Part shown: one piece after another, positions 1 through 13,159 of the stretch
Layout of the letters: each line of letters starts with the position of its first letter
Position numbering within the stretch: position 1 is the stretch's first letter
NCBI GenBank assembly: GCA_025997455.1
Contig: BNUP01000053.1
Location: 1-13,829 of the forward strand
Length of the DNA stretch: 13,829 nucleotides
Source: Fibrobacterales bacterium
Lineage (GTDB): Bacteria > Fibrobacterota > Fibrobacteria > Fibrobacterales > Fibrobacteraceae
Reading direction: 5' to 3'
Made by a program: the position numbers and the translations under genes
Notes under the pieces: model-generated
What the model was told of the DNA's origin: nothing
What the model saw: the letters and a program-made list of their open reading frames with translations, nothing else
Databases searched by the model: none

Positions 1-674
1 GCCGCAGATTTGGCTGCCGCCGCCCGAACTCCCGCCGCGCTTCTGTGATGTCCGTCGGCGATATATACGCACGGAAGAGCAGCGAATGAAATCCGTAAGC
101 GGTCTATCAAGGTTTCTTCGTCGATGAGCCAAACCGTGTGCCCAATTCCGTCTTCGGCGGTGAAGTCGTAAATGGGGGCTTTTTGAATTACCGGTCTGAG
201 GAGTGCGAATTGCCCTTTGTCGCGGTATGTGAGAAAGACGGGTCCGGTTTGTGCATTTGTTGCGGTGATGTGGCGGAGGCGGTCTTCTTCTTTATCTGCA
301 CGGGTGAGTTCGTGTTTTTTTATGATGTTTTTGTTGTAGTCTTCCGCTTTTACGCAGGCTACTAAGCCGTATTGTTCGCGCCCTTGCATTGTTTGGCGAT
401 ACACATAAAAGCAAGGTTTTTCGTCTTGAAAAACTACCCCTTCCTTTTCCATTCGCTTTAAGTTTTGGCGGGCTTGTTCATAGACCTTAGGGTCGTAGGG
501 GTCAGTTCCCGGCAGTTCAATTTCCGCACGGGTGACCCTCAGGTAGGAGTTCGGTTTTCCTTCTGCCATTTCTGCCGCTTCTGTGCGGTTCATAACATCG
601 TAAGGCAGGGATGACACTTCGGCTGCGAGTTCCGATTTGGGTCGCAGGGCACGAAAAGGATGGATTGAAAACAT
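1..674 (-). CDS. DUF1015 family protein; this is the N-terminal ~224 aa, and the gene continues past the window start
   Basis: Manual minus-strand translation from ATG (rc of 672-674) gives MFSIHPFRALRPKSELAAEV...VYIADGHHRSAAG. It has the DUF1015 hallmarks: N-terminal xIxPFxALRP and the ADGHHR motif. The frame stays open to position 1. It is absent from the ORF track only because it has no in-window stop. Confidence 0.75.
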   Translation of the reverse strand, partial: MFSIHPFRALRPKSELAAEVSSLPYDVMNRTEAAEMAEGKPNSYLRVTRAEIELPGTDPYDPKVYEQARQNLKRMEKEGVVFQDEKPCFYVYRQTMQGREQYGLVACVKAEDYNKNIIKKHELTRADKEEDRLRHITATNAQTGPVFLTYRDKGQFALLRPVIQKAPIYDFTAEDGIGHTVWLIDEETLIDRLRISFAALPCVYIADGHHRSAAGVRAAAAKSA

Positions 675-772
675 AATGTGGAATGTAGAAAACTTTGCAG
701 TGCAGGGGGGTATATAGGGTGTGGGGTGTAGGGTGTAGGGTGTGGAAAACTCGGCGGTGCATTTAGGGGAGA
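675..772 (-). promoter_or_regulatory. Shared promoter module for the DUF1015 gene: TGCACCGCCGAG box, C-heptamer array, CTGCACTGCAAAG box, then TTTTCTACATTCC with TACATT 7 nt before the ATG
   Basis: The rc of 675-772 reads ctaaatgcaccgccgagttttccacaccctacaccctacaccccacaccctatatacccccctgcactgcaaagttttctacattccacatt-ATG. This cassette recurs at six other gene starts in this window. Confidence 0.45.
712..752. repeat. GGGTRTG-type heptamer array (G-rich on + strand; upstream of minus-strand DUF1015 gene)
   Basis: ggggggtatatagggtgtggggtgtagggtgtagggtgtgg. There are at least 5 G3+ tracts with 3-6-nt loops, which is a G-quadruplex motif. Confidence 0.9.
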
Positions 773-840
773 AGGGAGAAGGTTGGTGTAGGGGCGTGGG
801 AATAGAGTGTAAAGTTGAAAGTTAAAAGTGTAAAGTTATT

Positions 841-884
841 ATTCTCTACTCTCTACTCTTTACTCTTTACTCTTTACTCTTTTC
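841..884. repeat. (CTCTTTA)n / (TACTCTT)n heptamer array, adjacent to an AGTGTAAAG/GTTGAAAG-type array at 816-840
   Basis: attctctactctctactctttactctttactctttactctttt. Related short arrays occur at 3478-3510 (gagtagagtgtaaagagaagagagtaaagttgaaagtg) and 10060-10090 (cttttcacttttcactttcaacttc). Confidence 0.8.
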
Positions 885-983
885 ACTTTTTTGTGGTGTT
901 CTATCCACACCGCGTTCCCCATACCCCATACCCTACACCCCACAATTTTCTACCTTCCCCCAGTAACTAACTTTGGAGGATTT
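884..983 (+). promoter_or_regulatory. Promoter module for the hemerythrin gene: 22-mer GTTCTATCCACACCGCGTTCCC, C-heptamer array, then TTTTCTACCTTCCCCC (TACCTT 951-956) followed by a 27-nt leader containing GGAGGA
   Basis: The same box order as the other modules, but the ATG is 27 nt downstream of the hexamer and the intervening leader carries a canonical SD. This is consistent with the hexamer being a -10 element rather than part of a ribosome binding site. Confidence 0.4.
917..944. repeat. CCCYACA-type heptamer array (C-rich on + strand; upstream of + strand hemerythrin gene)
   Basis: ccccataccccataccctacaccccaca. Confidence 0.9.
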
Positions 984-1391
984 ATGGCTTTTGGTTGGAC
1001 AGACGAGTTGCTCACGGGTAATTCAATGATAGATGAGCAGCACAAGGTGCTTATAAAGGCGATTGTCGATTTACTGGAAGCGAGTAAATCGGGAAACGGC
1101 TTGAACGAGGTTAAAAAGACCGTTGATTTTTTGGCGGATTACACCAATAAGCATTTTAGGGAAGAAGAGGCGTTGCAACAAAAATACGCTTACCCCGATA
1201 TTGAAAATCACAAAAAACTTCACGCCGCGTTTGTGAAAGTTGTTGAGAAAATCAAGGAGAGAATTAACGCAAACGAGTCTCTGCTCACCATTAGCATCGA
1301 TGTACAGCGGGCGGTTGCGGATTGGTTTGTGAATCACATTCTGCGCGAAGACAAAAAAGTCGCAAAGCATATTCAGGACAAAGCGGCATAA
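984..1391 (+). CDS. bacteriohemerythrin (hemerythrin-like O2/iron-binding protein)
   Basis: The ORF track frame runs 891..1391. I place the start at ATG 984, preceded by GGAGGA at 975-980. MAFGWTDELLTGNSMIDEQHKVLI...HFREEE...HKKLH... matches the bacteriohemerythrin N-terminus (W-x-DEL-x-G-x-IDxQHK) and the His/Glu iron ligand spacing. Confidence 0.85.
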   Translation: MAFGWTDELLTGNSMIDEQHKVLIKAIVDLLEASKSGNGLNEVKKTVDFLADYTNKHFREEEALQQKYAYPDIENHKKLHAAFVKVVEKIKERINANESLLTISIDVQRAVADWFVNHILREDKKVAKHIQDKAA

Positions 1392-1539: not shown

Positions 1540-1830
1540 ATGGCAAGAGATTATATAAAAAGCACGCGGAAAAGTTTGGATATGGAGTCATTGCAAGACC
1601 TCCGTTTTCCTATGGTTATGGAACTCGGCAAGGCGAAGGTGACCGTTCGCGATATGCTGAATTGGCAAAACGGTTCGGTTATTGAATTGGATAGAGTCGC
1701 AGGCGAAAATGTGGATTTGGAGATTAACAAAAAGGTTATGGCTAAGGGCGAAGTTGTGGTTATGAATAATCATTTGGGCTTTCGCTTGGTGACTCTGCTC
1801 TCTCCGGAAGAACGACTGAAGAGTTTGTAA
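1540..1830 (+). CDS. FliN/SpoA-domain protein (flagellar motor switch / T3SS surface-presentation family), 96 aa
   Basis: ELGKAKVTVRDMLNWQNGSVIELDRVAGENVDLEINKKVMAKGEVVVMNNHLGFRLV is a good match to the FliN C-terminal SpoA domain consensus. A GGAGA lies 9 nt upstream. The stop codon directly abuts the next ATG. Confidence 0.75.
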   Translation: MARDYIKSTRKSLDMESLQDLRFPMVMELGKAKVTVRDMLNWQNGSVIELDRVAGENVDLEINKKVMAKGEVVVMNNHLGFRLVTLLSPEERLKSL

Positions 1831-2907
1831 ATGCCTCAACGCAAATTACACGACCGCTTTCACGAAAGATTTCCCAACATTCCAATTTGGCACGCCCCGC
1901 CCTTTTTAATTCACGCTTCACTTTGGATTTTCATTTATCTTGTGCCGGTGATGCTGATACCGTCAGGTCGTGAAAATGCGTGGCAGTTCCGCTATTGGAC
2001 TACTGTTCCGTTTTTGGCGATTATGCTTTCGTTTTATGTCAATTATTTGTTTTTAATTCCCAAATTTCTTTTCAAAAAAAAATTAGTTATTTATGCACTC
2101 ATAAATATTGCGATGTTTTTTTTGCTGTCGTATCTCGGAGGGCTGTGGCACGAACATGTAGTTTCGCTCGGTTATTTGAAACAGCATCCCGATGATTTAC
2201 TTTCTCCCGGTTTCAAGGTGGTAAAAACTATTCTCGGTTTAATATTTGTTCTCGGAATTGCAATTTCAATTCGCACCACAAGCAAATGGTTTATGATGGA
2301 GAACAGCAGTCAAAAATTGCAATTGGAACACCTGCACAGCGAACTTACAATATTAAAAACACAAATTTCTCCTCATTTTCTTTTTAACACTTTGAATAAT
2401 ATTTTAACGCTCATAGATATAAATTCTGAACTCGCAAAACAGACCGTTCAACGACTTTCAAATCTTTTGCGTTCTATACTTTACGATGCGGAGGCGGATA
2501 GTGTGCCTATAAAACAAGAGGTTGAATTTTTGATAAATTACTCAAATTTAATGCGTTTGAGATACGATGAGAAAAAACTTCACTTCAATTTGGAAACCGA
2601 CCTTGAAGAACCAGATGCGCAAATTGCACCGCTGCTTTTAATTCCGCTTTTGGAAAATGTTTTTAAGCACGGAGTCGGCTCCGACGGTTCTGCGAGTATA
2701 GACATAAAAATTACATCAAAAAAGGGAAAGATAATTTACGAGAGTTCAAATACATATTCCCCTAAAACGCACACCGATAAAAGCGGCAACGGAATAGGTT
2801 TGGCAAATGTGCTCAAGCGACTCGAACTGCTTTACGAGAATCGTTTTTTATATGACAGCAAAATTGCAGGCGGAAATTATATAATCAGGCTGCAGGTGGA
2901 GGTTTAA
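1831..2907 (+). CDS. sensor histidine kinase, LytS/YehU family (His_kinase PF06580 + HATPase_c), with a polytopic N-terminal membrane domain
   Basis: N-terminal hydrophobic helices, then LKTQISPHFLFNTLNNI (the phospho-acceptor His box of LytS-type kinases) and a C-terminal GxGxG ATPase region (SGNGIGLANV). The ATG immediately follows the upstream stop. Confidence 0.85.
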   Translation: MPQRKLHDRFHERFPNIPIWHAPPFLIHASLWIFIYLVPVMLIPSGRENAWQFRYWTTVPFLAIMLSFYVNYLFLIPKFLFKKKLVIYALINIAMFFLLSYLGGLWHEHVVSLGYLKQHPDDLLSPGFKVVKTILGLIFVLGIAISIRTTSKWFMMENSSQKLQLEHLHSELTILKTQISPHFLFNTLNNILTLIDINSELAKQTVQRLSNLLRSILYDAEADSVPIKQEVEFLINYSNLMRLRYDEKKLHFNLETDLEEPDAQIAPLLLIPLLENVFKHGVGSDGSASIDIKITSKKGKIIYESSNTYSPKTHTDKSGNGIGLANVLKRLELLYENRFLYDSKIAGGNYIIRLQVEV

Positions 2908-2941: not shown

Positions 2942-3457
2942 TTACCGCGAGTTCAGGTAGTCTAAAACCTTTTGAGTTATGTCGTTTTCGTTTTTCCAAA
3001 AGAGCACCGCACCTGTTGCTCGGTCTAAAACATAGTCATAGCCTTCACTGAGGGCAATTTCATTTACCGCTTTTTTTATCAAGGCGATTATAGGGGCACT
3101 CACCTTTTCATTTTCACTCAAAAGTTCGCCGTTTCTTCCGTAGATTTTTTCGATAAAATTTTTAAGTTCTGCATCGCGCCGTGCATATTCCGCATCTAAT
3201 TCGCGCTTTTGCTCATCGGAAATCATAAGGGACTGCTTTTCTAAGCGTTCCTTTACAAATGCAAGTTCTTTCTGCAAAAGGTTTGCCTGCTGTTCCCATT
3301 TGGCAACTTGCCTGTCGTATTCCTCTTGTGCTTTTTTTGTGCCTTTGTATCCCTCAAATACGAGTTTTGAATCTATATGCGCAACCCGCATTCCGTCTGC
3401 CGCAAATGAAAAATTAAATGCCAAAGCGATAAAAGCAAAGAAGAAAATCGAACGCAT
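2942..3457 (-). CDS. OmpH/Skp-family periplasmic chaperone
   Basis: 171 aa with a signal peptide (MRSIFFFAFIALAFNFSFA) and a charged coiled-coil body (KKAQEEYDRQVAKWEQQANLLQKEL...) typical of OmpH/Skp. TACCTT-type box 6 nt upstream of the ATG. Confidence 0.8.
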   Translation of the reverse strand: MRSIFFFAFIALAFNFSFAADGMRVAHIDSKLVFEGYKGTKKAQEEYDRQVAKWEQQANLLQKELAFVKERLEKQSLMISDEQKRELDAEYARRDAELKNFIEKIYGRNGELLSENEKVSAPIIALIKKAVNEIALSEGYDYVLDRATGAVLFWKNENDITQKVLDYLNSR

Positions 3458-3545
3458 AAGGGTAAGGTAGTTAATTTAGAGTAGAGTGTAAAGAGAAGAG
3501 AGTAAAGTTGAAAGTGGGGGTATAGGGTGTGGGGTGTGGGGGGAA
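3458..3545 (-). promoter_or_regulatory. Promoter module for the OmpH gene: G-heptamer array, CTCTTTA array, then TTAACTACCTTACCC with TACCTT 6 nt before the ATG
   Basis: The rc reads ...ccccccacaccccacaccctatacccccactttcaactttactctcttctctttacactctactctaaattaactaccttaccctt-ATG. Confidence 0.4.
3516..3544. repeat. GGGTRTG-type heptamer array (upstream of minus-strand OmpH gene)
   Basis: gggggtatagggtgtggggtgtgggggg. Confidence 0.85.
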
Positions 3546-3571
3546 ATGGGAAATTGTAGGGGCAGGTTTTA

Positions 3572-3695
3572 ATAAGCATAGCCGCCCAATTAAAAAAAAA
3601 CGAGATAATCTGTATAAACAATGGCGGCAATAAGTATATCTGCCCTATTAAAAAGAAACCTGAGATAATCTGTATATACAATGGCAGAAAACCTG
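3572..3695. repeat. Two tandem ~61-bp AT-rich units inside copy A, each bounded by 6-bp inverted termini (GCCGCC...GGCGGC ; TCTGCC...GGCAGA)
   Basis: Unit 1 is ...gccgcccAATTAAAAAAAAACGAGATAATCTGTATAAACAATGGcggc. Unit 2 is ...tctgcccTATTAAAAAGAAACCTGAGATAATCTGTATATACAATGGcaga, ~80% identical. Copy B (9944-9994) has a single unit. Confidence 0.8.
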
Positions 3696-3749
3696 CCCTT
3701 AGCAGTGCAGAGTAAATTTAACAAGGGAACGCGGTGTGGATAGAACAAC

Positions 3750-3771
3750 AAAAGCCAAGAGTTTGGCTTTT
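3750..3771. terminator. Perfect 9-bp stem hairpin AAAAGCCAA-GAGT-TTGGCTTTT flanked by an A-run and a T-run (bidirectional terminator-like); a second copy lies at 9853-9874
   Basis: The stem and loop are read directly. A-tracts on the 5' side and T-tracts on the 3' side make it look like an intrinsic terminator on either strand. It lies inside the ~400-bp repeat and is followed by three more hairpins (3779-3794, 3817-3835, 3843-3864). Confidence 0.35.
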
Positions 3772-3865
3772 GTAGAGAGAGTGCTTTAGCACTCGTAAGT
3801 TCAGGTTTTTATATACATTGCAAACTCCTTGCAATTCTAAAAGGGCGGGTTAAAAACCACGCCCC

Positions 3866-3939
3866 TACAATTCCTTTCTCCACACCCCACACCCCACACC
3901 CCAACTTGCACCGCCGAGTGATTTTCTACATTCCCTCCT
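3866..3939 (+). promoter_or_regulatory. Promoter module for the lipoprotein/GT-C operon: C-heptamer array, TTGCACCGCCGAGTG (3906-3920), ATTTTCTACATTCCC (TACATT 3927-3932), 7 nt, then ATG 3940
   Basis: Read directly from the sequence. The -35-like TTGCAC and -10-like TACATT are separated by 16 nt. Confidence 0.45.
3881..3905. repeat. CCCCACA heptamer array (upstream of + strand lipoprotein gene)
   Basis: cacaccccacaccccacaccccaac. Confidence 0.9.
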
Positions 3940-4731
3940 ATGAAAAAACTCCTCTCACTTTTTGCAGTATCTGCGCTTGCCCTTGTGGCTTGCAAAAGCA
4001 CCGGCTCGGTATCGGGCACAGTCATTGACCCATTCACGGGAAAAGCGGTTGAACTCCCAACCGTATATGTAAAGGGAACAACATTCTCTTCGCAAAAAAT
4101 ACCGGGCGGTTTGCCGGACGGAACTTTTAAGTTTGAAGGTATTGAGGAAGGAACTTACACGGTGGAGGCGGGCAAAGGTAAATACTCCAAAGGGCATACG
4201 GAATTTACAATTTCAAAAGATGCCGCTAATGCTAAGGCAGATATTTACATTTACAGTCAGAGCACAGACCCCGGACTTTACCGACCTGTAGAAGGTGCGA
4301 ACGCCGAAAAAATCAGTGCGAGAGCAATTTTCCAGCCGATTTGCAAAGAAACGGGAATTGCATTTAGAACAAAATTCACCGTTGAAAATCCGCAAACAAA
4401 AAAGAAAGATGAAAATGTTTTGCCTGCACCGGTAGATGTTCCGCCAGATGTGACTCTGCTCATTAAAATTGCAACTTCCGTGTCCTCACCGATTGAGGCG
4501 ACCTCCTACCCCATACTCACCGAATCTGCAAAAAAACACGCCGATTGCGATGGTGTAGATCCAAAGGAAACTCTGATCGTCCCGAACCTAAGCAAAGGAA
4601 CGGTGATTCCCTCTGCCTACAAGAGTGAAAATTTATACGAAATTAAAGGTTCATTGCAGAGCGGAAAACAAATTCTTGCGATTAAGCAAGATGGTAAATT
4701 GGTAAATGCCTACTATATAAACGCGAAGTGA
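3940..4731 (+). CDS. lipoprotein with an N-terminal carboxypeptidase-regulatory-like (CarbopepD_reg) beta-sandwich domain
   Basis: Lipobox MKKLLSLFAVSALALVAC. SGTVIDPFTGKAVELPTVYVKGT...DGTFKFEGIEEGTYTV fits CarbopepD_reg_2. Its stop overlaps the next gene's start (GTGA at 4728-4731). Confidence 0.8.
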   Translation: MKKLLSLFAVSALALVACKSTGSVSGTVIDPFTGKAVELPTVYVKGTTFSSQKIPGGLPDGTFKFEGIEEGTYTVEAGKGKYSKGHTEFTISKDAANAKADIYIYSQSTDPGLYRPVEGANAEKISARAIFQPICKETGIAFRTKFTVENPQTKKKDENVLPAPVDVPPDVTLLIKIATSVSSPIEATSYPILTESAKKHADCDGVDPKETLIVPNLSKGTVIPSAYKSENLYEIKGSLQSGKQILAIKQDGKLVNAYYINAK

Positions 4732-7196
4732 TTACGAGTCGTTTTCTTTTTCCATTGATTTACACTGCACCTGTGCTCGCAGGTGCGTTGTTGTTATTCC
4801 AAAAAATTCCGCAAAATTCCGCAAAATACTTAGATATTGAATTTGGTTATTATGCAATTCTCTCCGTCTTTTTGTGGTTTTGCATCGCTTTAATTTGGAA
4901 TGCAAAAGAGATTTTTAATAGGGTAAAAGAGACTCTGCCGTCACGGAAGGCTGCTTGCGGACTCGGCGTTTTGCTTGTTGCATTTGCGGCGTTTGCTCTC
5001 ACTCAAATTGACCTTCGGCACAGAGTTTTGAGCGATGAGACGAGTTGGGAATCGATGGCTTTGGAGATGCGTTTTAATAAAAGCGGCGGAGTGTGTAATC
5101 AGGGGGTGTGGAAAGACGGCGTTTTGGAATGCCGAGATGTTGTGAATAATTTTAAGGGTAAGGCGTTTGCACTTGCGCAATCCTTAGCATTTTTATTTTT
5201 AGAACCGAACAGGGACACTTCCCTACTGCTGAATTTACCTCTTGCTCTCGGCTCAATTGCTCTTTTATTTTTTGCATTATTTCGATTTACCCGCGATGAA
5301 TATCTCGCTCTCACGGCGGCGATTTTTTTGGCGAGTATGCCGATTTTTCTGTTTCAGTCCCGTTCCGCATCTACCGAAGTTTTATATGTGTTTTTATTCG
5401 CTTTACTTTTGTGCATATACTCGCTTGTGCCTCCAAAAGAAATTAGTGTTCGGCATTTTGCACTCATAATTCCGTTGCTCGGACTCTTTGCACAGACGAG
5501 GCAGGAGACCGTTTTTTGTTTTATTCCCTTTGCGTTGTATTATCACGCCTATTTTAGAGAAAAAACTTGGCGATTGCCGATTTTTGTTTTTTTGGTTATT
5601 TTTGCGAGTTGGGTTTCTATAAATACAATGATAGCCTACCGCGGTTACGATTTTCAAGGCGGTGAGCATTCTGCACATTCCATTGCAAATTTTATTTACA
5701 ACTTTAAGTCAGATGTTAAAATTATGTGGAATGCGGGACTTGGCAACAACGGTCTTTTGAAAAATCCATTCTACACAACTTATACTTTGCTTTTGTTTGC
5801 AAGTTCAATTTGGTTGCTTTACAGAATAATTTTTCGGCGAAAATATTTGTGGTCGGGATTGTTGTTCGCCTTGTTTTGTTTGCAAATTGCGGTGATACTT
5901 TTTAATGTGTCGGGCACTTTTGAAATTGACATAAATCAGAGGTATGTTTTGGTTGCGTTGCCGTTGTTTGCGATTATTATGGCGGTTGGTTTTTGTGATA
6001 TATTTAAATGTCGCTTATTAGGTTCTGACGACTTATTAACGGGTTCTTCAGAGCCTGCTAAAAATTCAAAATTCGTCTGTATTTTGGCGGCTGTGCTCGC
6101 GGTTTATCTTTCGTTTCATCACAAAGAGAGTTTTAATGCTAACATTTTATATAGCCGAAATATGCTTCTCTCAGAGGAAGATTTTTTGAATACGGAGTTA
6201 AAAAAACTCCCGTCAAATTCAGTTTTTATTTATGCCAGACCTTGGCAAATGCTCGCAAGCGGTTTAACCGGATTTTCAGAACGGCAATTTTTGGGTTGGT
6301 CGCCAAAAGAATTGGATGATATGAGAAATTTTTCCGATGATAACATTTACATTGTGCGCGGGCAAGACGGCTATGGCGAGGTGAATAGAAATTCGCGGGT
6401 GGTCGGTTTTAAAACGACTTCAACAATAGATGCAATTTTGCAGGATTATGCAAATAATAAAATTTTTTCTGTGAATAAGCCCTTCGGTTATCCGCTTGAG
6501 GCATATAAAATCGGAAGGAAAAGAGGAGAATCGAAATATGAAAATTATTACAAACTTTATTTTGATGTGGGCGATTCGGCATTGAAAGTTTCGGTATCAA
6601 CTCCAGAGAATACTTCTAATTCAGAGACGAAAAACATTTTAGCAACGGAAAATTACGAACTTCTTTTGGATAACAAGTTTTATGAAAAAGGAAATGAAAA
6701 ATCGGCAGGTATGCATTACGCAACTTTAACTGCATTTGTCGAAGGCGATACCATAAAAAAGGAAACGCAATTTTTTGTTAGAAGTGAAAATAATCGACTT
6801 TTGCAGGATACAAAACCGAACAGTTGGGAGCAGAGTTGGAGCGAGCCTAAATACGGAAAATCGGTGGAAGGAAATACCATAAAAATTGACGGCAGAATTT
6901 TTGAATATGGGATAGGCTCTCATTCGCCTTCAAAATTAGTATGGGATATAAACGGCAAATACAAAAAATTTCACGGTTTTATTGGCTTAGATGATGAATC
7001 TGCGTGCGGGAACGGAGTTATTTATATTGTAAAAGGAGATGGTAAATCGCTTTACAAATCACGAGTTCTCGCCTCGCACGAATTGGATTCTCTTGAAGTA
7101 AATTTGGACGGAATTAAAACACTTGAACTTGAAACACTCGACAACGGCGATAAAGACTGCGACCACGCAAATTGGGCAGGTGCGTGGCTTGAATAG
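4728..7196 (+). CDS. polytopic membrane protein: ArnT/PMT-like GT-C glycosyltransferase N-terminal domain fused to a C-terminal NPCBM carbohydrate-binding domain
   Basis: 822 aa, GTG start overlapping the upstream stop. There are about 12 hydrophobic helices in the first ~430 aa, with an SDETSWESMALEM loop motif resembling the DExxYxExxxEM signature of GT39/GT83 enzymes. The C-terminal ~140 aa (GIGSHSPSKLVWDINGKYKKFHGFIGLDDESACGNGVIYIVKGDGKSLYKS...CDHANWAGAWL) matches the NPCBM/NEW2 consensus. Confidence 0.8.
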   Translation: MITSRFLFPLIYTAPVLAGALLLFQKIPQNSAKYLDIEFGYYAILSVFLWFCIALIWNAKEIFNRVKETLPSRKAACGLGVLLVAFAAFALTQIDLRHRVLSDETSWESMALEMRFNKSGGVCNQGVWKDGVLECRDVVNNFKGKAFALAQSLAFLFLEPNRDTSLLLNLPLALGSIALLFFALFRFTRDEYLALTAAIFLASMPIFLFQSRSASTEVLYVFLFALLLCIYSLVPPKEISVRHFALIIPLLGLFAQTRQETVFCFIPFALYYHAYFREKTWRLPIFVFLVIFASWVSINTMIAYRGYDFQGGEHSAHSIANFIYNFKSDVKIMWNAGLGNNGLLKNPFYTTYTLLLFASSIWLLYRIIFRRKYLWSGLLFALFCLQIAVILFNVSGTFEIDINQRYVLVALPLFAIIMAVGFCDIFKCRLLGSDDLLTGSSEPAKNSKFVCILAAVLAVYLSFHHKESFNANILYSRNMLLSEEDFLNTELKKLPSNSVFIYARPWQMLASGLTGFSERQFLGWSPKELDDMRNFSDDNIYIVRGQDGYGEVNRNSRVVGFKTTSTIDAILQDYANNKIFSVNKPFGYPLEAYKIGRKRGESKYENYYKLYFDVGDSALKVSVSTPENTSNSETKNILATENYELLLDNKFYEKGNEKSAGMHYATLTAFVEGDTIKKETQFFVRSENNRLLQDTKPNSWEQSWSEPKYGKSVEGNTIKIDGRIFEYGIGSHSPSKLVWDINGKYKKFHGFIGLDDESACGNGVIYIVKGDGKSLYKSRVLASHELDSLEVNLDGIKTLELETLDNGDKDCDHANWAGAWLE
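6018..6056. repeat. ~36-bp imperfect palindromic element (GGTTCTGACGAC-TTATTAACGG-GTTCTTCAGAGCC) lying in-frame inside the GT-C/NPCBM gene (encodes LGSDDLLTGSSEP)
   Basis: About 85% identical (28/33) to the intergenic element at 7401-7439. It sits at the junction between the TM domain and the extracytoplasmic region. Confidence 0.6.
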
Positions 7197-7204
7197 GGGG
7201 AAAT

Positions 7205-7399
7205 ATGAAATACGGAAAATTATCTGATGAAAAATTGACTGTTAAAAAGAAAAAGGTAAAGAGTGCAAAAATTGAAAAGAACGCAGTGGGAGCGGAAATT
7301 GAAAATAACGCGGAAACCTCGAATGTTGCGGAAGGAAAAAACTCCCTGCTAAAAATTCGGGAAAAAATTTTAAACGCAATTGCAGTGATTAAAAAGTAG
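7205..7399 (+). CDS. hypothetical Lys-rich small protein (64 aa)
   Basis: The ORF lies 8 nt after the upstream stop and is preceded by GGGGGAAAT. It is low complexity (KKKKVKSAKIEK) with no recognisable domain, and could be a spurious or small disordered protein. Confidence 0.35.
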   Translation: MKYGKLSDEKLTVKKKKVKSAKIEKNAVGAEIENNAETSNVAEGKNSLLKIREKILNAIAVIKK

Positions 7400-7400
7400 A

Positions 7401-7439
7401 GTAGGCTCTGATGACCTCTTAACGAGTTCTTCAGAGATT
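7401..7439. repeat. Intergenic copy of the same ~36-bp palindromic element (GGCTCTGATGAC-CTCTTAACGA-GTTCTTCAGAG) between convergent genes. It could act as a bidirectional terminator hairpin.
   Basis: Arms CTCTGATGAC / GTTCTTCAGAG form a ~10-bp imperfect stem. It lies between the stop of the 7205-7399 ORF and the stop of the MbfA-like gene. Confidence 0.6.
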
Positions 7440-7442
7440 ACT

Positions 7443-8318
7443 TTACAACTCTATTCCCAGAAAGTGCTTGACCAACTGTGCAATGGCAAACGACACAACG
7501 GAAACCAAAGCACACAAGCCGAACATTTCAAAAAAACGAGTTTTGAATTTCAAATCCTTAGCAACCGAAATATAATAGTTGAACGCCGCTATTATAAACA
7601 CAACAACGGCGAACATAGTAAGCAATGCGTGCAAATACATTTCCTTGGGAAACAGGAGATAAGGTGCAGTCATTAACGCAACGGTTACAAGATACATCGC
7701 TCCTGTGTAAAAACTCGATTTAACTGCTTGCGGATCGCCGTCTGCTTTTGCACTCAGGTAAGCGGAGGCAGTCATTGAAAGAGTCGCAGAAATTCCCGTT
7801 ATGAGACCCGCGAGTGCAACCATTCGAGTATTCTGCAATGCAAATGAAAAACCTGCGAGCGCACCAGTCAGTTCCACAAGTGCATCGTTCATACCGAGCA
7901 CCATAGACCCGACGAATTTCAATCGTTCTTCGTCTAACATATTTATTAAAACTTTTTCGTGCCGTTCTTCATCTGCACGAACTTGTGCGACTTCGGGAAA
8001 TTGGTCTATGAATTTGGAATAATTGACAACCGCAGAAGTTTCACCTTTTTCGAGAAATTTTATCATAAAAGTAAAACCGAAAAGTTTAGCAAAAAATAAA
8101 CTCATATTGACATGAAACCAATTCGCTTTAAGTTTTTTTCCCGTATATTTAGCCCATATTTTTTCGTGGTGGCTTTCGTCTATTGCCAAGTTTTCCAAAA
8201 TCTCACCGTTTTTTTCGCCGATTTTTTTCGCTATGCGTGAATATATCGTCGCACTGTCTGCCTCGCATTGTTGCATAAAGCAGAAGAATTTTGATGTTTT
8301 CGCCGAGAGAGTTGCCAT
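7443..8318 (-). CDS. erythrin-VIT1 family membrane ferritin / iron exporter (MbfA-like: N-terminal ferritin-like diiron domain + C-terminal VIT1/CCC1 transporter domain)
   Basis: Two E-x-x-H diiron motifs (DESHHEKIW, DEERHEKVL) form a rubrerythrin/erythrin-like N-terminal domain. They are followed by the VIT1 signature (GMNDALVELTGALAGFS) and 4-5 TM helices. TACCTT box 7 nt upstream of the ATG. Confidence 0.85.
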   Translation of the reverse strand: MATLSAKTSKFFCFMQQCEADSATIYSRIAKKIGEKNGEILENLAIDESHHEKIWAKYTGKKLKANWFHVNMSLFFAKLFGFTFMIKFLEKGETSAVVNYSKFIDQFPEVAQVRADEERHEKVLINMLDEERLKFVGSMVLGMNDALVELTGALAGFSFALQNTRMVALAGLITGISATLSMTASAYLSAKADGDPQAVKSSFYTGAMYLVTVALMTAPYLLFPKEMYLHALLTMFAVVVFIIAAFNYYISVAKDLKFKTRFFEMFGLCALVSVVSFAIAQLVKHFLGIEL

Positions 8319-8410
8319 TGTGGGGAAGGTAGAAAGTTTGCACGCGGCGGTGCAGATTAGGGTGTAGGGTATGGGGTGTAGGGTGTGGGGAACTCGGCGT
8401 TGCAGAGGAA
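8319..8410 (-). promoter_or_regulatory. Promoter module for the MbfA-like gene: CTGCAACGCCGAGTT, C-heptamer array, TAATCTGCACCGCCGCGTGCAAAC, then TTTCTACCTTCCCC with TACCTT 7 nt before the ATG
   Basis: The rc of this interval is about 95% identical over ~90 nt to 10081-10170 upstream of the epimerase gene. Confidence 0.45.
8359..8390. repeat. GGGTRTG-type heptamer array (upstream of minus-strand MbfA-like gene)
   Basis: tagggtgtagggtatggggtgtagggtgtgggg. Confidence 0.9.
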
Positions 8411-8418
8411 ACCATAAA

Positions 8419-8745
8419 CTACGGTATTGGGTAAAACACCCCGTATCTGTCGTGCAGGTATTCTTTTTCGTTGTAAATGGGTTTTATCAATTCTAATTTT
8501 GCAGGAGTTCCAGCGTTGTTCAAACTGTCTGCAATTTCAGCCGCCCGTGCTGCACCCAATAGTTGCCCGATTACGAAAATTGTGTCGCCAAACGCACTTC
8601 CGTTTTCATATCTTTTTAATTCGACTTCTTTTTTTGCAAAGTTCAGAGTGCTCTCTTCGCGCATAACTATGTATAACACCAAAGCGGCATATATTATTAG
8701 GATAACACAAGCACTTCTTAAAATTGTAAAAAAAATTCTTTTCAT
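8419..8745 (-). CDS. hypothetical small membrane-anchored protein (108 aa)
   Basis: A single N-terminal TM helix (ILRSACVILIIYAALVLYIVM) followed by a soluble domain. It lies downstream of the SPFH gene on the same strand, separated by two hairpins. No family assigned. Confidence 0.5.
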   Translation of the reverse strand: MKRIFFTILRSACVILIIYAALVLYIVMREESTLNFAKKEVELKRYENGSAFGDTIFVIGQLLGAARAAEIADSLNNAGTPAKLELIKPIYNEKEYLHDRYGVFYPIP

Positions 8746-8875
8746 CTCTTTTCATCTCGTTAGAAGGGGTGTTCTTTTTGCAATGACAAACTGCCGAAGG
8801 GGTAGCGGAAAACACGCGTAGGGGCGGAGTTTGCCCGCCCATTATGCGCGGTTGGAGCGAGGGGAAGGCTTTCCC

Positions 8876-9685
8876 CTACCTGACATCTAAAAAGGGAATC
8901 GGTGCATTGCCGCCCATATAAGTCGGGAGTTGTCCGTTCCATTTTTCAATGGATTTTAAGTTCACATAATCTTTGCCGCCCTGTGCACGAATTGCATCTG
9001 CCTGAATGCGTATGGATTCCGCCTCGCCGCGTGCCTGTGCAATTTTTTGGTCTGCCTCAACCTTAATCCGTTCCAAGTTATTTTTCGCCGTGAGTGCCTT
9101 TTGCTCCGCGACTTGCTTGTCCTCAATCGCCTCGTTAAATCCCTTGCTGAAATCGAAGTTGGTAATTTGCACGCCGCCCGCATCGACAATTATATTGTAG
9201 TCCAAAAGTTGCCTCGTTAAACTCTCGGAAATTTCGTTTTTCACCTGCTCACGCATAGTGAGTAATTCCTCCGCCGCGTATCTCGCCACAACCGCTTTAA
9301 CCGTTTCCTGTATGCGCGCCGCGATAATTTTGTTCTCAACATCCAAGCCTACTGTCGAGTAGAGTTCTCTTAATTTGACTTGATCCAAGTGGTAGTTTAG
9401 GGTGAGAACGGTTGAGACAATCTGCATATTTTTAGATGCCGCCTGTGCCGGTGCCTCTGCTTTTTGCGTGCGAATATCGACCTTTGAAATTGTTTGCATT
9501 ATCGGGATTTTGAAGTGCAAGCCCTCATCGCTCACCGATGTGATTTCGCCCCAAGTGAAGACCAACGCCTTTTCTCCCGAACGCACGGTGTAAAACGCAC
9601 CCGATACCACTATTGAGCCTATTACTATTGCGATTATTGCAACAGTGAGAAATTTTGTGCCTATGCTGCCATTTTGATTTACCAT
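8876..9685 (-). CDS. SPFH/band-7 (prohibitin/HflC-like) membrane protein
   Basis: N-terminal TM anchor (FLTVAIIAIVIGSIVVSGAF), then the typical SPFH core (YTVRSGEKALVFTWGEI...) and an Ala/Glu-rich coiled-coil tail (KQVAEQKALTAKNNLERIKVEADQKIAQARGEAE). TACATT box 6 nt upstream of the ATG. Confidence 0.9.
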   Translation of the reverse strand: MVNQNGSIGTKFLTVAIIAIVIGSIVVSGAFYTVRSGEKALVFTWGEITSVSDEGLHFKIPIMQTISKVDIRTQKAEAPAQAASKNMQIVSTVLTLNYHLDQVKLRELYSTVGLDVENKIIAARIQETVKAVVARYAAEELLTMREQVKNEISESLTRQLLDYNIIVDAGGVQITNFDFSKGFNEAIEDKQVAEQKALTAKNNLERIKVEADQKIAQARGEAESIRIQADAIRAQGGKDYVNLKSIEKWNGQLPTYMGGNAPIPFLDVR

Positions 9686-9760
9686 TATGGGAATGTAGAA
9701 AATTAACTCGGCAGTGCAAGTTGGGGTGTGGGGTGTGGGGTGTGGGGTGTGGAGAAAGGA
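9686..9760 (-). promoter_or_regulatory. Promoter module for the SPFH gene: C-heptamer array (on the gene's coding strand), TTGCACTGCCGAGTT, AATTTTCTACATTCCC, 6 nt, then ATG
   Basis: The rc reads ctccacaccccacaccccacaccccaacttgcactgccgagttaattttctacattcccata-ATG. It is homologous to 3881-3939. Confidence 0.45.
9723..9752. repeat. GGGGTGT heptamer array (upstream of minus-strand SPFH gene)
   Basis: ggggtgtggggtgtggggtgtggggtgtgg. Confidence 0.9.
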
Positions 9761-9767
9761 ATTGTAG

Positions 9768-9794
9768 GGGCGTGGTTTTTAACCCGCCCTTTTA
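9768..9794 (+). terminator. Hairpin GGGGCGTGG-TTTTTAA-CCCGCCC followed by TTTT (terminator-like on the + strand); the copy-A equivalent at 3843-3864 points along the minus strand
   Basis: GC-rich stem of 8-9 bp with one bulge, immediately followed by a T4 run. In both copies it would stop transcripts leaving the inverted-repeat-bounded segment before they enter the neighbouring genes (epimerase or OmpH). Confidence 0.35.
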
Positions 9795-10030
9795 GAATTG
9801 CAAGGAGTTTGCAATGTATATAAAAACCTGAACTTACGAGTGCTAAAGCACTCTCTCTACAAAAGCCAAACTCTTGACTTTTGTTGTTCTATCCACACCG
9901 CGTTCCCTTGTTAAATTTACTCTGCACTGCTAAGGGCATGTTTTCTGCCATTGTATATACAGATTATCTCAGGTTTCTTTTTAATAGGGCAGATATACTT
10001 ATTAAAACCTGCCCCTACAATTTCCCATTT

Positions 10031-10060
10031 CCCCCCCACACCCCACACCCTACACCCCAC
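10031..10060. repeat. CCCYACA heptamer array, the inner of two arrays upstream of the epimerase gene
   Basis: cccccccacaccccacaccctacaccccac. Confidence 0.85.
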
Positions 10061-10080
10061 TTTTCACTTTTCACTTTCAA

Positions 10081-10170
10081 CTTCTGCAACGCCAAGTTCC
10101 CCACACCCTACACCCCATACCCTACACCCTAATCTGCACCGCCGCGTGCAAACTTTCTACCTTCCCTCCA
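10081..10170 (+). promoter_or_regulatory. Promoter module for the epimerase/LtaS-like operon: CTGCAACGCCAAGTT, C-heptamer array, TAATCTGCACCGCCGCGTGCAAAC, TTTCTACCTTCCC (TACCTT 10158-10163), 7 nt, then ATG 10171
   Basis: Read directly from the sequence. It duplicates the MbfA-like gene's 5' module. Confidence 0.45.
10099..10130. repeat. CCCYACA heptamer array, proximal and upstream of the epimerase gene
   Basis: ccccacaccctacaccccataccctacaccct. This and its flanks are near-identical to rc(8319-8410) upstream of the MbfA-like gene. Confidence 0.9.
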
Positions 10171-11244
10171 ATGAACATTTTAGTCACCGGTGCGGCAGGG
10201 TTTATAGGGAATGCGGTTTCTTTATCGCTTCTTGCACGAGGACATTCCGTGCTCGGACTCGATAACTTAAACGATTATTATTCTGTGGAACTCAAAAAAG
10301 CAAGGCTTGGCAGATGCAAAGAATTTGCAGAACAAGGTTTATTTTCATTTAAGCAATTAGACATAACAAACACGGAAGACATCAATAAATTTTTCGGCGA
10401 AAATAAATTTGACAGCGAAAATAAAGTAATCTCAGAAGAACTCCTCAAAACTTTACCTCATAAAACAACAAGTTCTTCAGTTCCAACTAAATTTGACGGA
10501 ATAATTCATTTGGCGGCGCAGGCTGGAGTCCGCTACAGTTTGGAAAATCCATACACATATATAGATACAAACATAAAAGGCACTCTAAATTTACTTGAAG
10601 CGTGCCGCAGAAATTCCATAGATAATTTTGTCTATGCGAGCAGCAGTTCCGTTTATGGAGACAATGCAAAAATTCCGTTCAGCACCGAAGACATCGCAGA
10701 TTTTCCCGTCAGTTTATACGCCGCAACCAAACGGAGCACCGAACTAATCGCCCACACATATTCGCACTTATTCGGTATTAAAGCGGTGGGACTCAGGTTT
10801 TTTACGGTTTATGGCGAATGGGGAAGACCAGATATGGCTCCTATGCTTTTTGCGAAAAACATTTTGGCAGATCGCCCAATAAAAATTTTCAACAACGGGA
10901 ATATGCGCAGGGATTTCACATATATAGATGATATTGTGAATGGGACAATTGGAATTTTTGAATGGAATGCCGCACGCAAAATTATTGAAAATGATAAAAA
11001 TGCCGCGAGAACTTTTAACATAGGTCGCGGTGAGCCTGTGGATCTTTTGAATTTTGTGGAAGTTTTGGAAAACGAATTGGGAAAAAAAGCCGAAAAAGAA
11101 TTTTTACCTATGCAGGCGGGCGATGTTCCAGTAACTTGGGCAGACACTTCCGCACTCGAAAAAGTAATCGGTTACAAACCATCGGTTTCCTTAGCACAAG
11201 GCGTTAAAAATTTTGCAAAATGGTATAAATCATATTATGCTTAA
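10171..11244 (+). CDS. NAD-dependent sugar-nucleotide epimerase of the SDR family, UDP-glucuronate 4-epimerase-like, carrying a 28-aa in-frame insertion
   Basis: MNILVTGAAGFIGNAVSLSLLARGHSVLGLDNLNDYYSVELKKARL...IHLAAQAGVRYS...YASSSSVYG...YAATK... matches the GalE/UDP-GlcA-4-epimerase (Cap1J/WbpP-like) pattern with the YxxxK catalytic motif. Confidence 0.9.
   Translation: MNILVTGAAGFIGNAVSLSLLARGHSVLGLDNLNDYYSVELKKARLGRCKEFAEQGLFSFKQLDITNTEDINKFFGENKFDSENKVISEELLKTLPHKTTSSSVPTKFDGIIHLAAQAGVRYSLENPYTYIDTNIKGTLNLLEACRRNSIDNFVYASSSSVYGDNAKIPFSTEDIADFPVSLYAATKRSTELIAHTYSHLFGIKAVGLRFFTVYGEWGRPDMAPMLFAKNILADRPIKIFNNGNMRRDFTYIDDIVNGTIGIFEWNAARKIIENDKNAARTFNIGRGEPVDLLNFVEVLENELGKKAEKEFLPMQAGDVPVTWADTSALEKVIGYKPSVSLAQGVKNFAKWYKSYYA
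10414..10497. mobile_element. 84-bp in-frame insertion in the epimerase gene flanked by a 9-10-bp direct repeat (T)AAATTTGAC (10404-10413 and 10488-10497), with an internal inverted repeat CAGAAGAACT...AGTTCTTCAG
   Basis: The DRs are read directly. The insert encodes SENKVISEELLKTLPHKTTSSSVPTKFD between a duplicated KFD immediately before the conserved IHLAAQAGVRYS. UDP-GlcA epimerases normally have a single KFD-like tripeptide directly before xVIHLAAQ. Confidence 0.55.
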
Positions 11245-13159
11245 AAATCGCATCGCTTTATGGAGAACCGCACTCCGCCCGCTAATTTCAATATCGCTCG
11301 CCTTTTGGTTGTGCCATATTCTTTTGCGGATGGTTTTGATTTTTAGGAGCGACCCTTACGGACTTCCGTTTGTGAGCAAGCCCGATTGGTTTATTTTTCA
11401 CGCCGTTTGCATAGACTTTTTATGGATAATAAATTTTTTTGCGGCGTTTGCAATAATTTCTCTTTTCCTCTCGCCCCGCATTTCACAATACTTTACCAAA
11501 TTTTATGTAATTATTCAATCTGCACTTTTGTTAATCACGCTTTTAGATAACGAAGTTCAGCGATTTTTGGGAACGCATCTTTCGTTTGGGCTTGCAAACA
11601 CATATAAAGATACATCGTCTTTACGAATGTTTTGGGAGTATTGCGCATCTGATGTTTCTGTTCCATTTTTGCAATTTTTTCTGTTGGTTTTTCTGTTGCC
11701 GCTCGCATATTTATTTTACATTTTGGTTAAAAATTTCAAAGTTAAATCGGCACTAATATCCATAGTTATATTTTACGCAATTTCATTTTTATTTATAAAT
11801 GTAATTTGGACAGGCAATGCGCGAATGGCAAAACTTGCTCCGGTTGTTTCTTTAATCTATAACGAAATTTTTTCAAAGGATAAAAACGAACGGTTGAACG
11901 AAACCGAATTGCTCGCTTACGGAAAATCATATCAAATTTTATGGCTCAAAACGGAGGGAGATTCTCTGTGGGAATTTCCGCAAAAAGAAAAACCGCTTTA
12001 CCGAGTGCCAAGCGAAGAACTGCAAAATTCACAACAACTAAAAAATCGTCGTGCACAAAAACCGAATTTCATAATGATACTTTTGGAATCGCACAGAGCC
12101 TTAAATGTAGATTTTCTAAACTCGACTAAAAATAACTCAACTCCGTTTTTAGATTCTTTGGCGGGTAATTCTCACATCTGGGAACGATTTCACGCAAGCG
12201 GAATCCCCACAACAGGCGGCGTTCTTTCCACTCACATTGGCATTCCGCACCACAGTAAAATTGCCATGGCAACCGAACTCGCACATTTGCCCATACCGAG
12301 TTTTGTATCTGCCTTACGGGATTCAGGTTATGCCACACACTATTTTTCCGCCGCAGACCCCGCTTGGGACAACTTAAATGTTTGGATGGCAAAATGGTAT
12401 AACGATCAACATTACGCACGCACACGCGAAGATGATTCGACTTTTTTCAAACACGCCGCAGAATATATAAACGACACTCTTGCAAGCAATAATATTGGGT
12501 CGCCCTTTTTTATCACACTTATGACTCGCAGCAACCACTACCCTTTTAACCTCGCCCCCGGAATGCCCGAAAGCGAAAAAGCAAAACCAATAACAGAGCG
12601 AATAAACTACACAATGCGTTGGACAGATAAGCAACTTTCAAAGTTTTTTCATTCGATAGAAAATGAGGAATGGTTTGCAAACACATATATAATTATACTT
12701 GCAGACCACGGATTTCCGCTCGGTGAAAACGGAGTTTCCACGATGAACGGCGGTGCATTTTCAAATGTCACTTGGATTCCCTTTTTGATTTACGGAAACG
12801 GTATTGAGGCAAAAAAAGATACCTCAGCGGCAAGTCAAATAGACATTGCTCCGACAATACTTGAACTCGCGGGAATTTCTGTGCCGAATTGTTTTATGGG
12901 GCATAACTTGTTGCGCGGCAACGGCGAAGGTTTATCTTTGGGTGCGTATTTCGGTTTTAGTGCAATAGGATTAGAGGGTTTCAGGCTGATTTCAAAATTT
13001 CCTTACGGCTTACAAAACGAGGAGAGTTATCTGTTTGCAGACGGTGACACTCGGCAGCGTGAGAACTTGGCAAGTGAAAACTTAACAACCGTTCGGCAAC
13101 TCAACGGACTTTTAGATACCTTAATTCGGCTAAGCGACAACGGTTTGGAAAATCCTTAA
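11237..13159 (+). CDS. LtaS/phosphoglycerol- or phosphoethanolamine-transferase-like membrane sulfatase-family protein
   Basis: About 5 N-terminal TM helices, then an alkaline-phosphatase/sulfatase domain (IMILLESHRALNVDF...PFLDSLAGNS...ADHGFPLGENG). The start is chosen at the in-frame ATG 11237, which overlaps the epimerase stop by 8 nt. The track start at 11213 would overlap it by 32 nt. Confidence 0.8.
   Translation: MLKNRIALWRTALRPLISISLAFWLCHILLRMVLIFRSDPYGLPFVSKPDWFIFHAVCIDFLWIINFFAAFAIISLFLSPRISQYFTKFYVIIQSALLLITLLDNEVQRFLGTHLSFGLANTYKDTSSLRMFWEYCASDVSVPFLQFFLLVFLLPLAYLFYILVKNFKVKSALISIVIFYAISFLFINVIWTGNARMAKLAPVVSLIYNEIFSKDKNERLNETELLAYGKSYQILWLKTEGDSLWEFPQKEKPLYRVPSEELQNSQQLKNRRAQKPNFIMILLESHRALNVDFLNSTKNNSTPFLDSLAGNSHIWERFHASGIPTTGGVLSTHIGIPHHSKIAMATELAHLPIPSFVSALRDSGYATHYFSAADPAWDNLNVWMAKWYNDQHYARTREDDSTFFKHAAEYINDTLASNNIGSPFFITLMTRSNHYPFNLAPGMPESEKAKPITERINYTMRWTDKQLSKFFHSIENEEWFANTYIIILADHGFPLGENGVSTMNGGAFSNVTWIPFLIYGNGIEAKKDTSAASQIDIAPTILELAGISVPNCFMGHNLLRGNGEGLSLGAYFGFSAIGLEGFRLISKFPYGLQNEESYLFADGDTRQRENLASENLTTVRQLNGLLDTLIRLSDNGLENP

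Follow-up and report, generated by a model that had tools for sequence, protein, structure and literature searches.

Two stretches of intergenic DNA lie in opposite orientation on either side of a 5.8-kb gene segment on contig BNUP01000053.1 of a Fibrobacterales bacterium (GenBank assembly GCA_025997455.1), and they raise the question whether they bracket an invertible cassette or belong to a repeat with a wider distribution. The window, i.e., the whole stretch of 13,829 nt that was analyzed, is one contig of a termite-gut Fibrobacterota, and these 13.8 kb are all of the host genome that is in scope. The left-hand stretch, copy A, lies upstream of a lipoprotein gene and the right-hand one, copy B, upstream of an SPFH gene. 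The answer favored here is that the two arms are probably recent paralogous copies of a non-coding, palindromic, hairpin-forming intergenic repeat of ~335-385 bp, which would make them a passive substrate for inversion and not a programmed switch.

The two inverted copies

For identity scoring, positions 3458-3939 were aligned by MAFFT with the reverse complement of 9686-10170 and the alignment was scored by script. Between 3525-3906 in copy A and the reverse complement of 9719-10052 in copy B, 322 of the 324 aligned bases are identical, with 2 substitutions (99.4%). Over 3541-3912, the interval for which the initial annotation had given about 99%, there are 311 matches and 3 substitutions (99.0%). 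A repeat search returned inverted arms of 275 nt (3629-3903 and 9729-10003) that are 99% complementary and continue more weakly to either side, and the longest exact block shared by the copies is 148 nt long (3756-3903 / 9729-9876). The long inverted repeat is real and beyond chance, and the near-identical repeats of about 400 bp first proposed for this locus hold up, as does the suggestion of recent duplication or gene conversion, to which both length and near-identity testify. A single extra unit of 61 bp in copy A had been taken as the sole indel. There are three, of 58, 7, and 1 nt: the 58-nt indel is a unit present in copy A alone (3571-3628), the 7-nt indel is one additional CCCCACA heptamer in copy B (9746-9752), and the 1-nt indel is an additional G in copy B (10037).

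Recognizable similarity extends from ~3505 to 3936 in copy A and from 9689 to ~10071 in copy B, being far weaker at both ends. On the promoter-proximal side, i.e., the box, the -10-like motif and the sequence up to the ATG (3907-3939), only 27 of 32 bases are identical (5 substitutions, 84%), and to the left of 3525 the similarity decays within heptamer repeats. As identity falls from 99.4% to 84% at the boundary between tract and box, the recent event must have copied tract, core and tract but not the promoters, and the drop at 3907 together with the decay in the left-hand heptamers places both boundaries of the recent copy in heptamer tracts. The 99% unit spans heptamer tract to heptamer tract and the promoter lies outside it. 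The proposal that each repeat provides the promoter module of the first inward gene is weakened by this: the 99% unit ends at the tract, the promoter is a separate stretch of 33 nt at 84% identity, and 13 relatives keep the motif without the element. The promoters of the two copies resemble each other in the way that all promoters in the contig do.

The element is 385 or 335 bp long in the two copies, and each copy folds as one large palindrome (z = -8.0 and -8.8 on the two strands, RNA parameters). Its ends pair as imperfect terminal inverted repeats of ~60 nt (79% identity), and each end consists of a heptamer tract and a GC hairpin with a GTAG head, which reads GTAGGGGCAGG...CCGCCC at the left end and as the complement of GTAGGGGCGTGGTTTTTAACCCGCCC at the right end. 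Between the ends the DNA is AT-rich and gene-free, with sub-repeats and small hairpins. The promoter-proximal tracts of the copies differ by one heptamer in otherwise identical sequence: 3880-3903 has only three C4 runs, one below the G-quadruplex (G4) motif, giving three G-runs at the lipoprotein gene vs four, a canonical G4, at the SPFH gene (9722-9752).

Heads of the sequence GTAGGGGC occur 6 times in 13.8 kb vs 0.13 expected, all of them intergenic, and two lie outside the copies (at 788 and at 8818, the latter between SPFH and the small membrane-protein gene). When folding was compared with shuffled controls, three of the five distinct head sequences were significant and a fourth weak, while the head at 788, which is without a partner arm, gave no signal. 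In the folds of GTAGGGGCGTGGTTTTTAACCCGCCC and GTAGGGGCGGAGTTTGCCCGCCC, which have short loops, the head stays unpaired (z = -4.0 and -3.2), the DNA fold of the hairpin at 3838-3868 having -8.6 kcal/mol (z = -4.0). The left-end hairpins, whose loops are long, give weaker folds, with z = -2.4 in copy B and a non-significant -1.1 in copy A. The stretch between the SPFH stop and the 108-aa gene (8790-8875) holds two GC hairpins, AGGGGAAAGCCTTCCCCT and GGGCGGGCAAACTCCGCCCCTAC, of which the second is GTAG-headed, resembles a repetitive extragenic palindromic (REP) sequence and lies inside an apparent operon.

The single AT-rich unit of copy B equals unit 2 of copy A, and the 58 nt that it lacks are flanked by AATAAG direct repeats. 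On both counts copy B would be a deletion derivative of an ancestor that, like copy A, had two units. Two small hairpins come after the tandem units, and on the minus strand of copy A one of these resembles a terminator. All open reading frames (ORFs) within the element are at most 104 aa long and without a Pfam match above threshold. An Rfam search (E <= 1) gave nothing in either copy and, across the window, just two weak chance matches to eukaryotic families at 720-944; no tRNA or tmRNA genes were detected in the window.

Gene starts and heptamer tracts across the window

All seven promoter-type gene starts in the window have a common layout: a heptamer tract, usually a box of the sequence TGCACYGCCGMGT, and then TTCTACMTTCC ~5 nt before the ATG (Table 1). 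The heptamers are GGGGTGT or GGGTGTA, about four per tract, with the G-rich strand being the template strand of the gene. By Tandem Repeats Finder (TRF) the tracts have 3.4-4.7 units, which on the sense strand read CCCCACA, CCCTACA, or CCCCATA. In 8/8 tracts it is the C-rich strand that serves the adjacent gene as sense strand, and the tracts lie 30-59 nt from the ATG. Canonical G4 motifs (G3+N1-7 x4) number 7 in 13.8 kb vs 0.06 in Markov simulations, all on the template strand of the adjacent gene. The seven 75-mers upstream of the promoters have pairwise identities of 56-97%.

The motif TTCTACMTTCC is found six times vs 0.64 expected. Every occurrence points into a gene start, and in five it lies 4-5 nt 5' of the ATG, with the embedded hexamer TACATT or TACCTT ending 7 nt before the start codon. 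The six sites are at 680-690, 948-958, 3924-3934, 8324-8334, 9690-9700, and 10155-10165. The sixth case, that of the hemerythrin gene, is located ~25 nt upstream of an ATG that has GGAGG, which argues for a signal of transcription and not of translation. Judged by its position, the motif resembles the -10 element expected for leaderless mRNAs. A scan with the sigma-70 consensus found no promoter in 3400-4000, and the organism's own -10-like motif was used in place of that consensus. The box TGCACYGCCGMGT or a close variant (TGCACTGCAAAGT before DUF1015) is found upstream of the motif in five of the seven promoters. It was considered as a -35 element and rejected, because the distance between box and hexamer is variable (12-18 nt) and orphan boxes occur on the far side of tracts; it is treated here as a repeat module.

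The same design is found away from copies A and B. A second inverted pair (8316-8406 / 10083-10173; 91 nt, 97% complementary) is formed by two promoter cassettes, that of the MbfA-like gene and that of the epimerase gene, upstream of genes facing away from each other; the pair encloses the small membrane-protein gene, SPFH, and copy B. The third intergenic region of like design, 678-983, includes at 889-919 a 31-nt fragment of the A/B core (93.5% identity). Within it, 700-945 is a nested palindrome made almost entirely of heptamers, in which GGGTGTA and AAAGTTA on the left mirror TTACTCT and CCCCATA on the right. As there is a second inverted pair and a third region of the same kind, copies A and B are members of a modular repeat family and do not form a bracket around one segment. 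A special tie between the repeats and the 5.8-kb segment, as first envisaged, is not supported, since the repeats belong to a modular system that recurs in the window wherever an intergenic region bears a promoter. Gene orientation accounts for the inverted arrangement as a by-product: as every tract has a set polarity with respect to its gene, a copy in front of each of two genes facing one another can only give an inverted pair.

The bracketed segment itself is unremarkable in composition. Among the ORFs of the contig that were scanned against Pfam, none has a recombinase, integrase, or transposase domain, in line with the earlier statement that the window has no recombinase. That the segment consists of two convergent transcription units is correct as far as the convergent gene sets are concerned, but the MbfA-like gene has a repeat and promoter cassette of its own (8319-8406), and for this reason the right-hand side is probably two transcription units. 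The 64-aa ORF at 7205-7399 has no counterpart downstream of GT-C/NPCBM in relatives. Elsewhere in the window a perfect hairpin with 14-nt arms (GGTAACCTCTACCAACC TCATAAGA GGTTGGTAGAGGTTACC) lies between the hemerythrin and FliN genes (1420-1455).

Table 1. Genes and repeat features of the 13.8-kb window.
Feature	Position	Strand	Description
Copy A	3505-3939	+	Heptamer region to just before lipoprotein ATG; high-identity part 3525-3906; alignment, identity profile, fold
Copy B	9686-10077	-	Reverse orientation; high-identity part 9719-10052; promoter end toward SPFH gene
Bracketed 5.8-kb segment	3940-9685		Lipoprotein, GT-C/NPCBM, mini-ORF (+); MbfA-like, 108-aa membrane protein, SPFH (-)
G-rich heptamer tract, left end of copy A	3516-3543	+	TRF period 7; canonical G4 motif on OmpH template strand
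GTAG-headed REP-like GC hairpin, left	3556-3589	+	Inner part of left terminal inverted repeat of copy A; counterpart in copy B 9985-10018 (-)
Two tandem ~58-60-nt AT-rich units	3571-3685	+	Each has GAGATAATCTGTATAWACAATGGC; TRF period 60, 1.9 copies, 85% matches; unit 1 (3571-3628) absent from copy B
GTAG-headed GC hairpin GTAGGGGCGTGGTTTTTAACCCGCCC, right	3838-3868	-	Inner part of right terminal inverted repeat of copy A; counterpart in copy B 9764-9794 (+)
C-rich heptamer tract, right end of copy A	3880-3903	+	CCACACC, 3.4 units; 36 nt 5' of lipoprotein ATG; TRF, G4 scan
Lipoprotein promoter region	3907-3939	+	Box TGCACCGCCGAGT (3907-3919); TTCTACATTCC (3924-3934), 5 nt before ATG at 3940
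SPFH promoter region	9686-9718	-	Box TGCACTGCCGAGT (9706-9718); TTCTACATTCC (9690-9700), 4 nt before ATG at 9685
G-rich heptamer tract of copy B	9722-9752	+	4.4 units, canonical G4 motif; 36 nt upstream of SPFH ATG; TRF, G4 scan
C-rich heptamer tract, far end of copy B	10031-10060	+	Counterpart of 3516-3543; TRF, G4 scan
MbfA-like promoter cassette	8316-8406	-	Box, heptamer tract, box, TTCTACCTTCC, ATG; inverted pair with 10083-10173
Epimerase promoter cassette	10083-10173	+	Partner of 8316-8406; directly adjoins copy B
Third intergenic region of like design	678-983		Between divergent DUF1015 and hemerythrin; inverted tracts, box, GTAGGGGC head at 788
DUF1015	1-674	-	Pfam
Hemerythrin	984-1391	+	Pfam
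FliN	1540-1830	+	Pfam
Histidine kinase	1831-2907	+	Pfam
OmpH	2942-3457	-	Pfam
Lipoprotein	3940-4731	+	Weak, sub-threshold CarboxypepD_reg match
GT-C/NPCBM	4728-7196	+	822 aa, NPCBM at end; Pfam
Mini-ORF	7205-7399	+	64 aa, lysine-rich; no Pfam family
MbfA-like	7443-8318	-	Rubrerythrin + VIT1; Pfam
108-aa membrane protein	8419-8745	-	No Pfam family
SPFH	8876-9685	-	Pfam
Epimerase	10171-11244	+	Pfam
Sulfatase-family	11213-13159	+	Pfam
GGDEF	13156-13821	-	Pfam

Relatives and the origin of the copies

In the GTDB species collection the closest genomes are metagenome-assembled ones of termite-gut Fibrimonadaceae/Fibrimonadales, with a GT-C/NPCBM protein 64-71% identical to the one in the window. In 13 relatives only the lipoprotein and GT-C/NPCBM genes are adjacent, and OmpH, MbfA, the small protein, SPFH, and the epimerase are absent within up to 10 kb on either side of that locus. 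Most relatives have a convergent gene of ~250-262 aa 3' of GT-C/NPCBM, at the place taken in the window by the mini-ORF and MbfA. Relatives of SPFH (82-86% identical) are found in the context SPFH-(105-aa gene or other)-HU-UDG, and their upstream regions are compact divergent promoters of 41-45 nt (two loci) or 220 nt (one locus) in which the element is absent. The 5.8-kb segment was not found as a unit when flanks were compared in these relatives, and it reads as a mosaic of at least three blocks. Acquisition of the bracketed genes as a unit, an alternative raised at the outset, was rejected: there is neither a compositional anomaly nor common synteny in relatives, where only the lipoprotein and GT-C/NPCBM genes are kept together (13 relatives) and SPFH has its HU-UDG context.

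The gene-start design has a counterpart in these relatives. The sequence TTCTAYATTA, followed by ~5 nt and an ATG, precedes real ORFs (at least 60 aa) nearly always in the loci of the 13 relatives, and the -10-like motif is present upstream of 13/13 orthologous lipoprotein genes at equal distance from the ATG, without the element. The signature was seen in the loci L002-L015 and L019-L022, including back-to-back divergent pairs; the TTCTATATTG variant of L013 was recognized by direct reading, being outside the scan pattern. Across termite-gut Fibrimonadaceae the signature looks like a leaderless -10 element, as far as its placement tells. Divergent gene pairs in relatives have start codons just ~30-50 nt apart, so that the extra intergenic DNA of the present genome would be an insertion or expansion. 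The element is absent from the orthologous sites, in relatives whose proteins are only 56-86% identical.

Probably one copy was made from the other, or both were homogenized, by a copying event with its end-points in the heptamer tracts. Intrachromosomal gene conversion or template switching, with the tracts as portable homology, would be one route. Transposition of an element with tracts and REP-like hairpins as its ends, similar to a REPIN (a REP doublet that forms a hairpin) or to a miniature inverted-repeat transposable element (MITE), would be another. Copy B may then have lost one 58-nt unit through slippage between the AATAAG direct repeats. The repeat occupies the space between minimal promoters that apparently serve leaderless mRNAs, and the pair would be a passive substrate for RecA-dependent inversion without a change of promoter-gene pairing. 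A more far-reaching scheme, in which leaderless promoters are systematically coupled to template-strand G4 tracts, the tracts act as portable homology by which whole upstream regions (palindromes of tract, core, and tract) are copied from promoter to promoter, with homogenization of the DNA there and seeding of rearrangements, and the number of units (3 vs 4) tunes or switches output, is a long shot.

Several points weigh against recent copies of an intergenic repeat family as the explanation. The window holds only two copies of the core and the one 31-nt fragment. Beyond it the core is unmatched: an exact-pattern scan with its most conserved piece (GGAACGCGGTGTGGATAGAAC) gave 0 matches in GTDB species genomes and 0 in JGI metagenomes, blastn of the element gave no match in plasmids, phages, or 267 kb of relatives' loci, and the stop-free translation of the core was without a match in a database of 5.8 billion proteins. 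The pattern of box and -10 cassette likewise had 0 matches in metagenomes. No direct repeat that could be a target-site duplication flanks either copy, the flanks being inverted heptamers, which leaves mobility putative. Both transposition and gene conversion are compatible with the data, and the leaderless-promoter reading is a prediction from where the motif sits. A literature search on Fibrimonas and on leaderless expression in Fibrobacteres returned nothing specific. Shared regulation of the two operons, considered below, also has to be counted here.

Inversion of 3940-9685 by RecA, with the arms as crossover sites and both orientations coexisting, is an unlikely account of the locus. RecA pathways need a minimal homology of a few tens of bp, and the two arms, near-identical, inverted, and only 5.8 kb apart, are far above that minimum. 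The initial annotation was right to regard the repeats as substrates for homologous recombination, given 148 nt of uninterrupted identity, and right that inversion would leave promoter connections intact, the two arms having equivalent inward-facing promoters. Synteny around both gene sets also differs from that of relatives, with breaks at repeat-bearing intergenic regions, but synteny is poorly conserved across the family generally and the repeats are therefore not claimed as the cause of the breaks. Inversion would recreate the same promoter-gene pairs and so leave a switch with nothing to control, no recombinase is found among the scanned ORFs, and the arms are not specific to the segment. 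Furthermore, the copies keep distinct variants along their length (the 58-nt unit, the 2 substitutions, and the number of heptamers), and these lie so near to one another that short reads would be expected to separate the copies and the orientation. Exact-protein look-ups led to two short Logan contigs of run DRR253688, both of which end at the element. They join the A-specific promoter variant to the lipoprotein gene and the OmpH-side flank to OmpH, with no alternative junction; SPFH, MbfA, and the epimerase were not on record in these look-ups. Inversion mediated by RecA would be physically plausible and expression-neutral, and there is no sign of a dedicated inversion switch.

There is also a small chance that the conserved core co-regulates the lipoprotein/GT-C and SPFH operons, through binding sites or a small transcript, and that the copies are kept identical by selection or conversion. 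The candidates would be the two central hairpins and the GAGATAATCTGTATATACAATGGC units with their TGTATATACA palindrome. Conservation is 99% in the core vs 84% in the promoter next to it, a 24-nt unit is repeated exactly (twice in copy A, once in copy B), the minus strand of copy A has a terminator-like hairpin, ACAAAAGCCAAACTCTTGGCTTTTGT, followed by TGTTCT, and both downstream operons encode envelope or membrane proteins. However, the 24-nt unit is found nowhere else in the window, a simple scan of the core revealed no sigma-70-type promoter and Rfam no family, and in copy B the terminator-like stem loses a pair to one of the two substitutions in the core. Orthologous genes in relatives do without any such region, and recency explains 99% identity in non-coding DNA more simply. 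It is very improbable that the arrangement is an artefact, i.e., chimeric amplification or a misjoin at the repeat in a single-cell or low-input assembly: the contig does come from a small termite-gut assembly, multiple-displacement amplification is known to create inverted chimeras, and the independent Logan assembly does fail to span the element, but the copies differ in the core (by 2 substitutions and 3 indels) as well as in their diverged ends, the end of each is in register with where a real gene starts, a different one for either copy, the Logan contigs join the expected flanks, and the modular design recurs at four intergenic regions.

Known repeat systems and significance

As recent copies of an intergenic repeat, the arms can be compared with several known classes. 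REP sequences are defined by a 5' GT(A/G)G tetranucleotide followed by an imperfect palindrome (PMC3686654), and REPs and REPINs are mobilized by RAYTs, tyrosine transposases associated with REPs, the spacers of Pseudomonas REPINs being 34-110 bp (PMC3686654, PMC3337134). The hairpins described here agree with the sequence definition of REPs, having a 5' GTAG head and a GC-rich imperfect palindrome, and are extragenic and over-represented. Like a REPIN, the element has two inverted heads around a spacer and folds as a whole into a hairpin. It differs from REPINs in its longer spacer (~250-305 bp), in the heptamer tracts that its ends additionally carry, and in having only 6 heads in 13.8 kb; no RAYT (Y1 transposase) was found among the contig ORFs scanned. 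In relatives, GTAGGG-headed perfect palindromes (e.g., GTAGGGACGCGATTAATCGCGTCCCTAC, -15 kcal/mol) stand between the upstream stop and the lipoprotein promoter (L007 9138-9165, L015 2195-2222, and L012 5418-5440). REP-like hairpins may accordingly be a trait of the whole family.

MITEs, including promoter-proximal ones such as the Correia elements of Neisseria, form a second class for comparison. The element resembles them in being shorter than 600 bp, non-coding, and intergenic, with an AT-rich interior, imperfect terminal inverted repeats of ~60 nt, and near-identical copies that adjoin promoters. Unlike MITEs, it is without a target-site duplication and a known parent transposase, and its terminal repeats consist of tandem heptamers. 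Invertible switches (fimS-type switches, Bacteroides invertons, and shufflons) use repeats of ~10-30 bp around a segment of usually a few hundred bp, have a recombinase nearby, and change a promoter-gene link upon inversion. The locus shares with them the inverted repeats around promoter-containing DNA, but its repeats are ~380 bp long and 5.8 kb apart, the scanned ORFs include no nearby site-specific recombinase, and inversion would alter no promoter-gene pairing.

The tracts themselves are closest to the G4-forming heptameric simple sequence repeats of Xanthomonas (GGGAATC) and Nostoc (GGGGA(C/T)T) (Rehm et al., 2015; PMC4692102). In both cases a 7-nt unit with a G3-4 run, preferably about four units, lies in intergenic DNA within ~50 nt upstream of an ORF, the non-coding strand being the G-rich one, and inverted pairs of tracts could form stem-loops or G4s (Rehm et al., 2015). 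The tracts described here have four or more G3-4 runs, except for three in the right tract of copy A, and share the position and strand near ORFs. They differ from the published repeats in their units (GGGGTGT, GGGTGTA, and GGGTATG) and phylum (Fibrobacterota), in that the G4 is predicted only, and in making up the outer portion of a larger element's terminal inverted repeats (Rehm et al., 2015). They are also common between divergent genes, where the published ones are under-represented (Rehm et al., 2015). Arrays of the heptamer TAACTGA, abundant intergenic direct repeats in Beggiatoaceae, Cyanobacteria, and Bacteroidetes, are similar in being short (2-6 copies) arrays of a 7-nt unit just upstream of the start codons of unrelated genes (MacGregor, 2015; PMC4679880). 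Unlike the present tracts, which lie upstream of the -10-like motif, those arrays are not G-rich, stand a few nt from the start codon, and have a proposed translational role (MacGregor, 2015). Inverted pairs of heptamer tracts around a spacer of 50-300 nt were also seen in relatives (L009 6675-6790, L013 2421-2518, and L006 4505-4854, the last in an apparent coding region), as well as in unrelated phyla, with differing units in the same design (L016 16534-16635 of Verrucomicrobiaceae and L017 11583-11746 of Binatia).

Taken as a potential invertible cassette, the pair of repeats matters little, since it is normal for long inverted copies of a dispersed intergenic repeat to give rise to an occasional rearrangement. 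A more useful by-product is the strikingly regular design of gene starts in this termite-gut Fibrobacterota genome, in which a predicted-G4 heptamer tract is followed by a box and by a -10-like motif ~5 nt from the ATG. If transcripts confirm this design, widespread leaderless expression in the clade would be documented, and the tracts would provide a third, phylogenetically distant example of the poorly understood G4-forming heptamer repeats. The tracts are physically tied to REP-like hairpins, and this may help to explain how such tracts spread.

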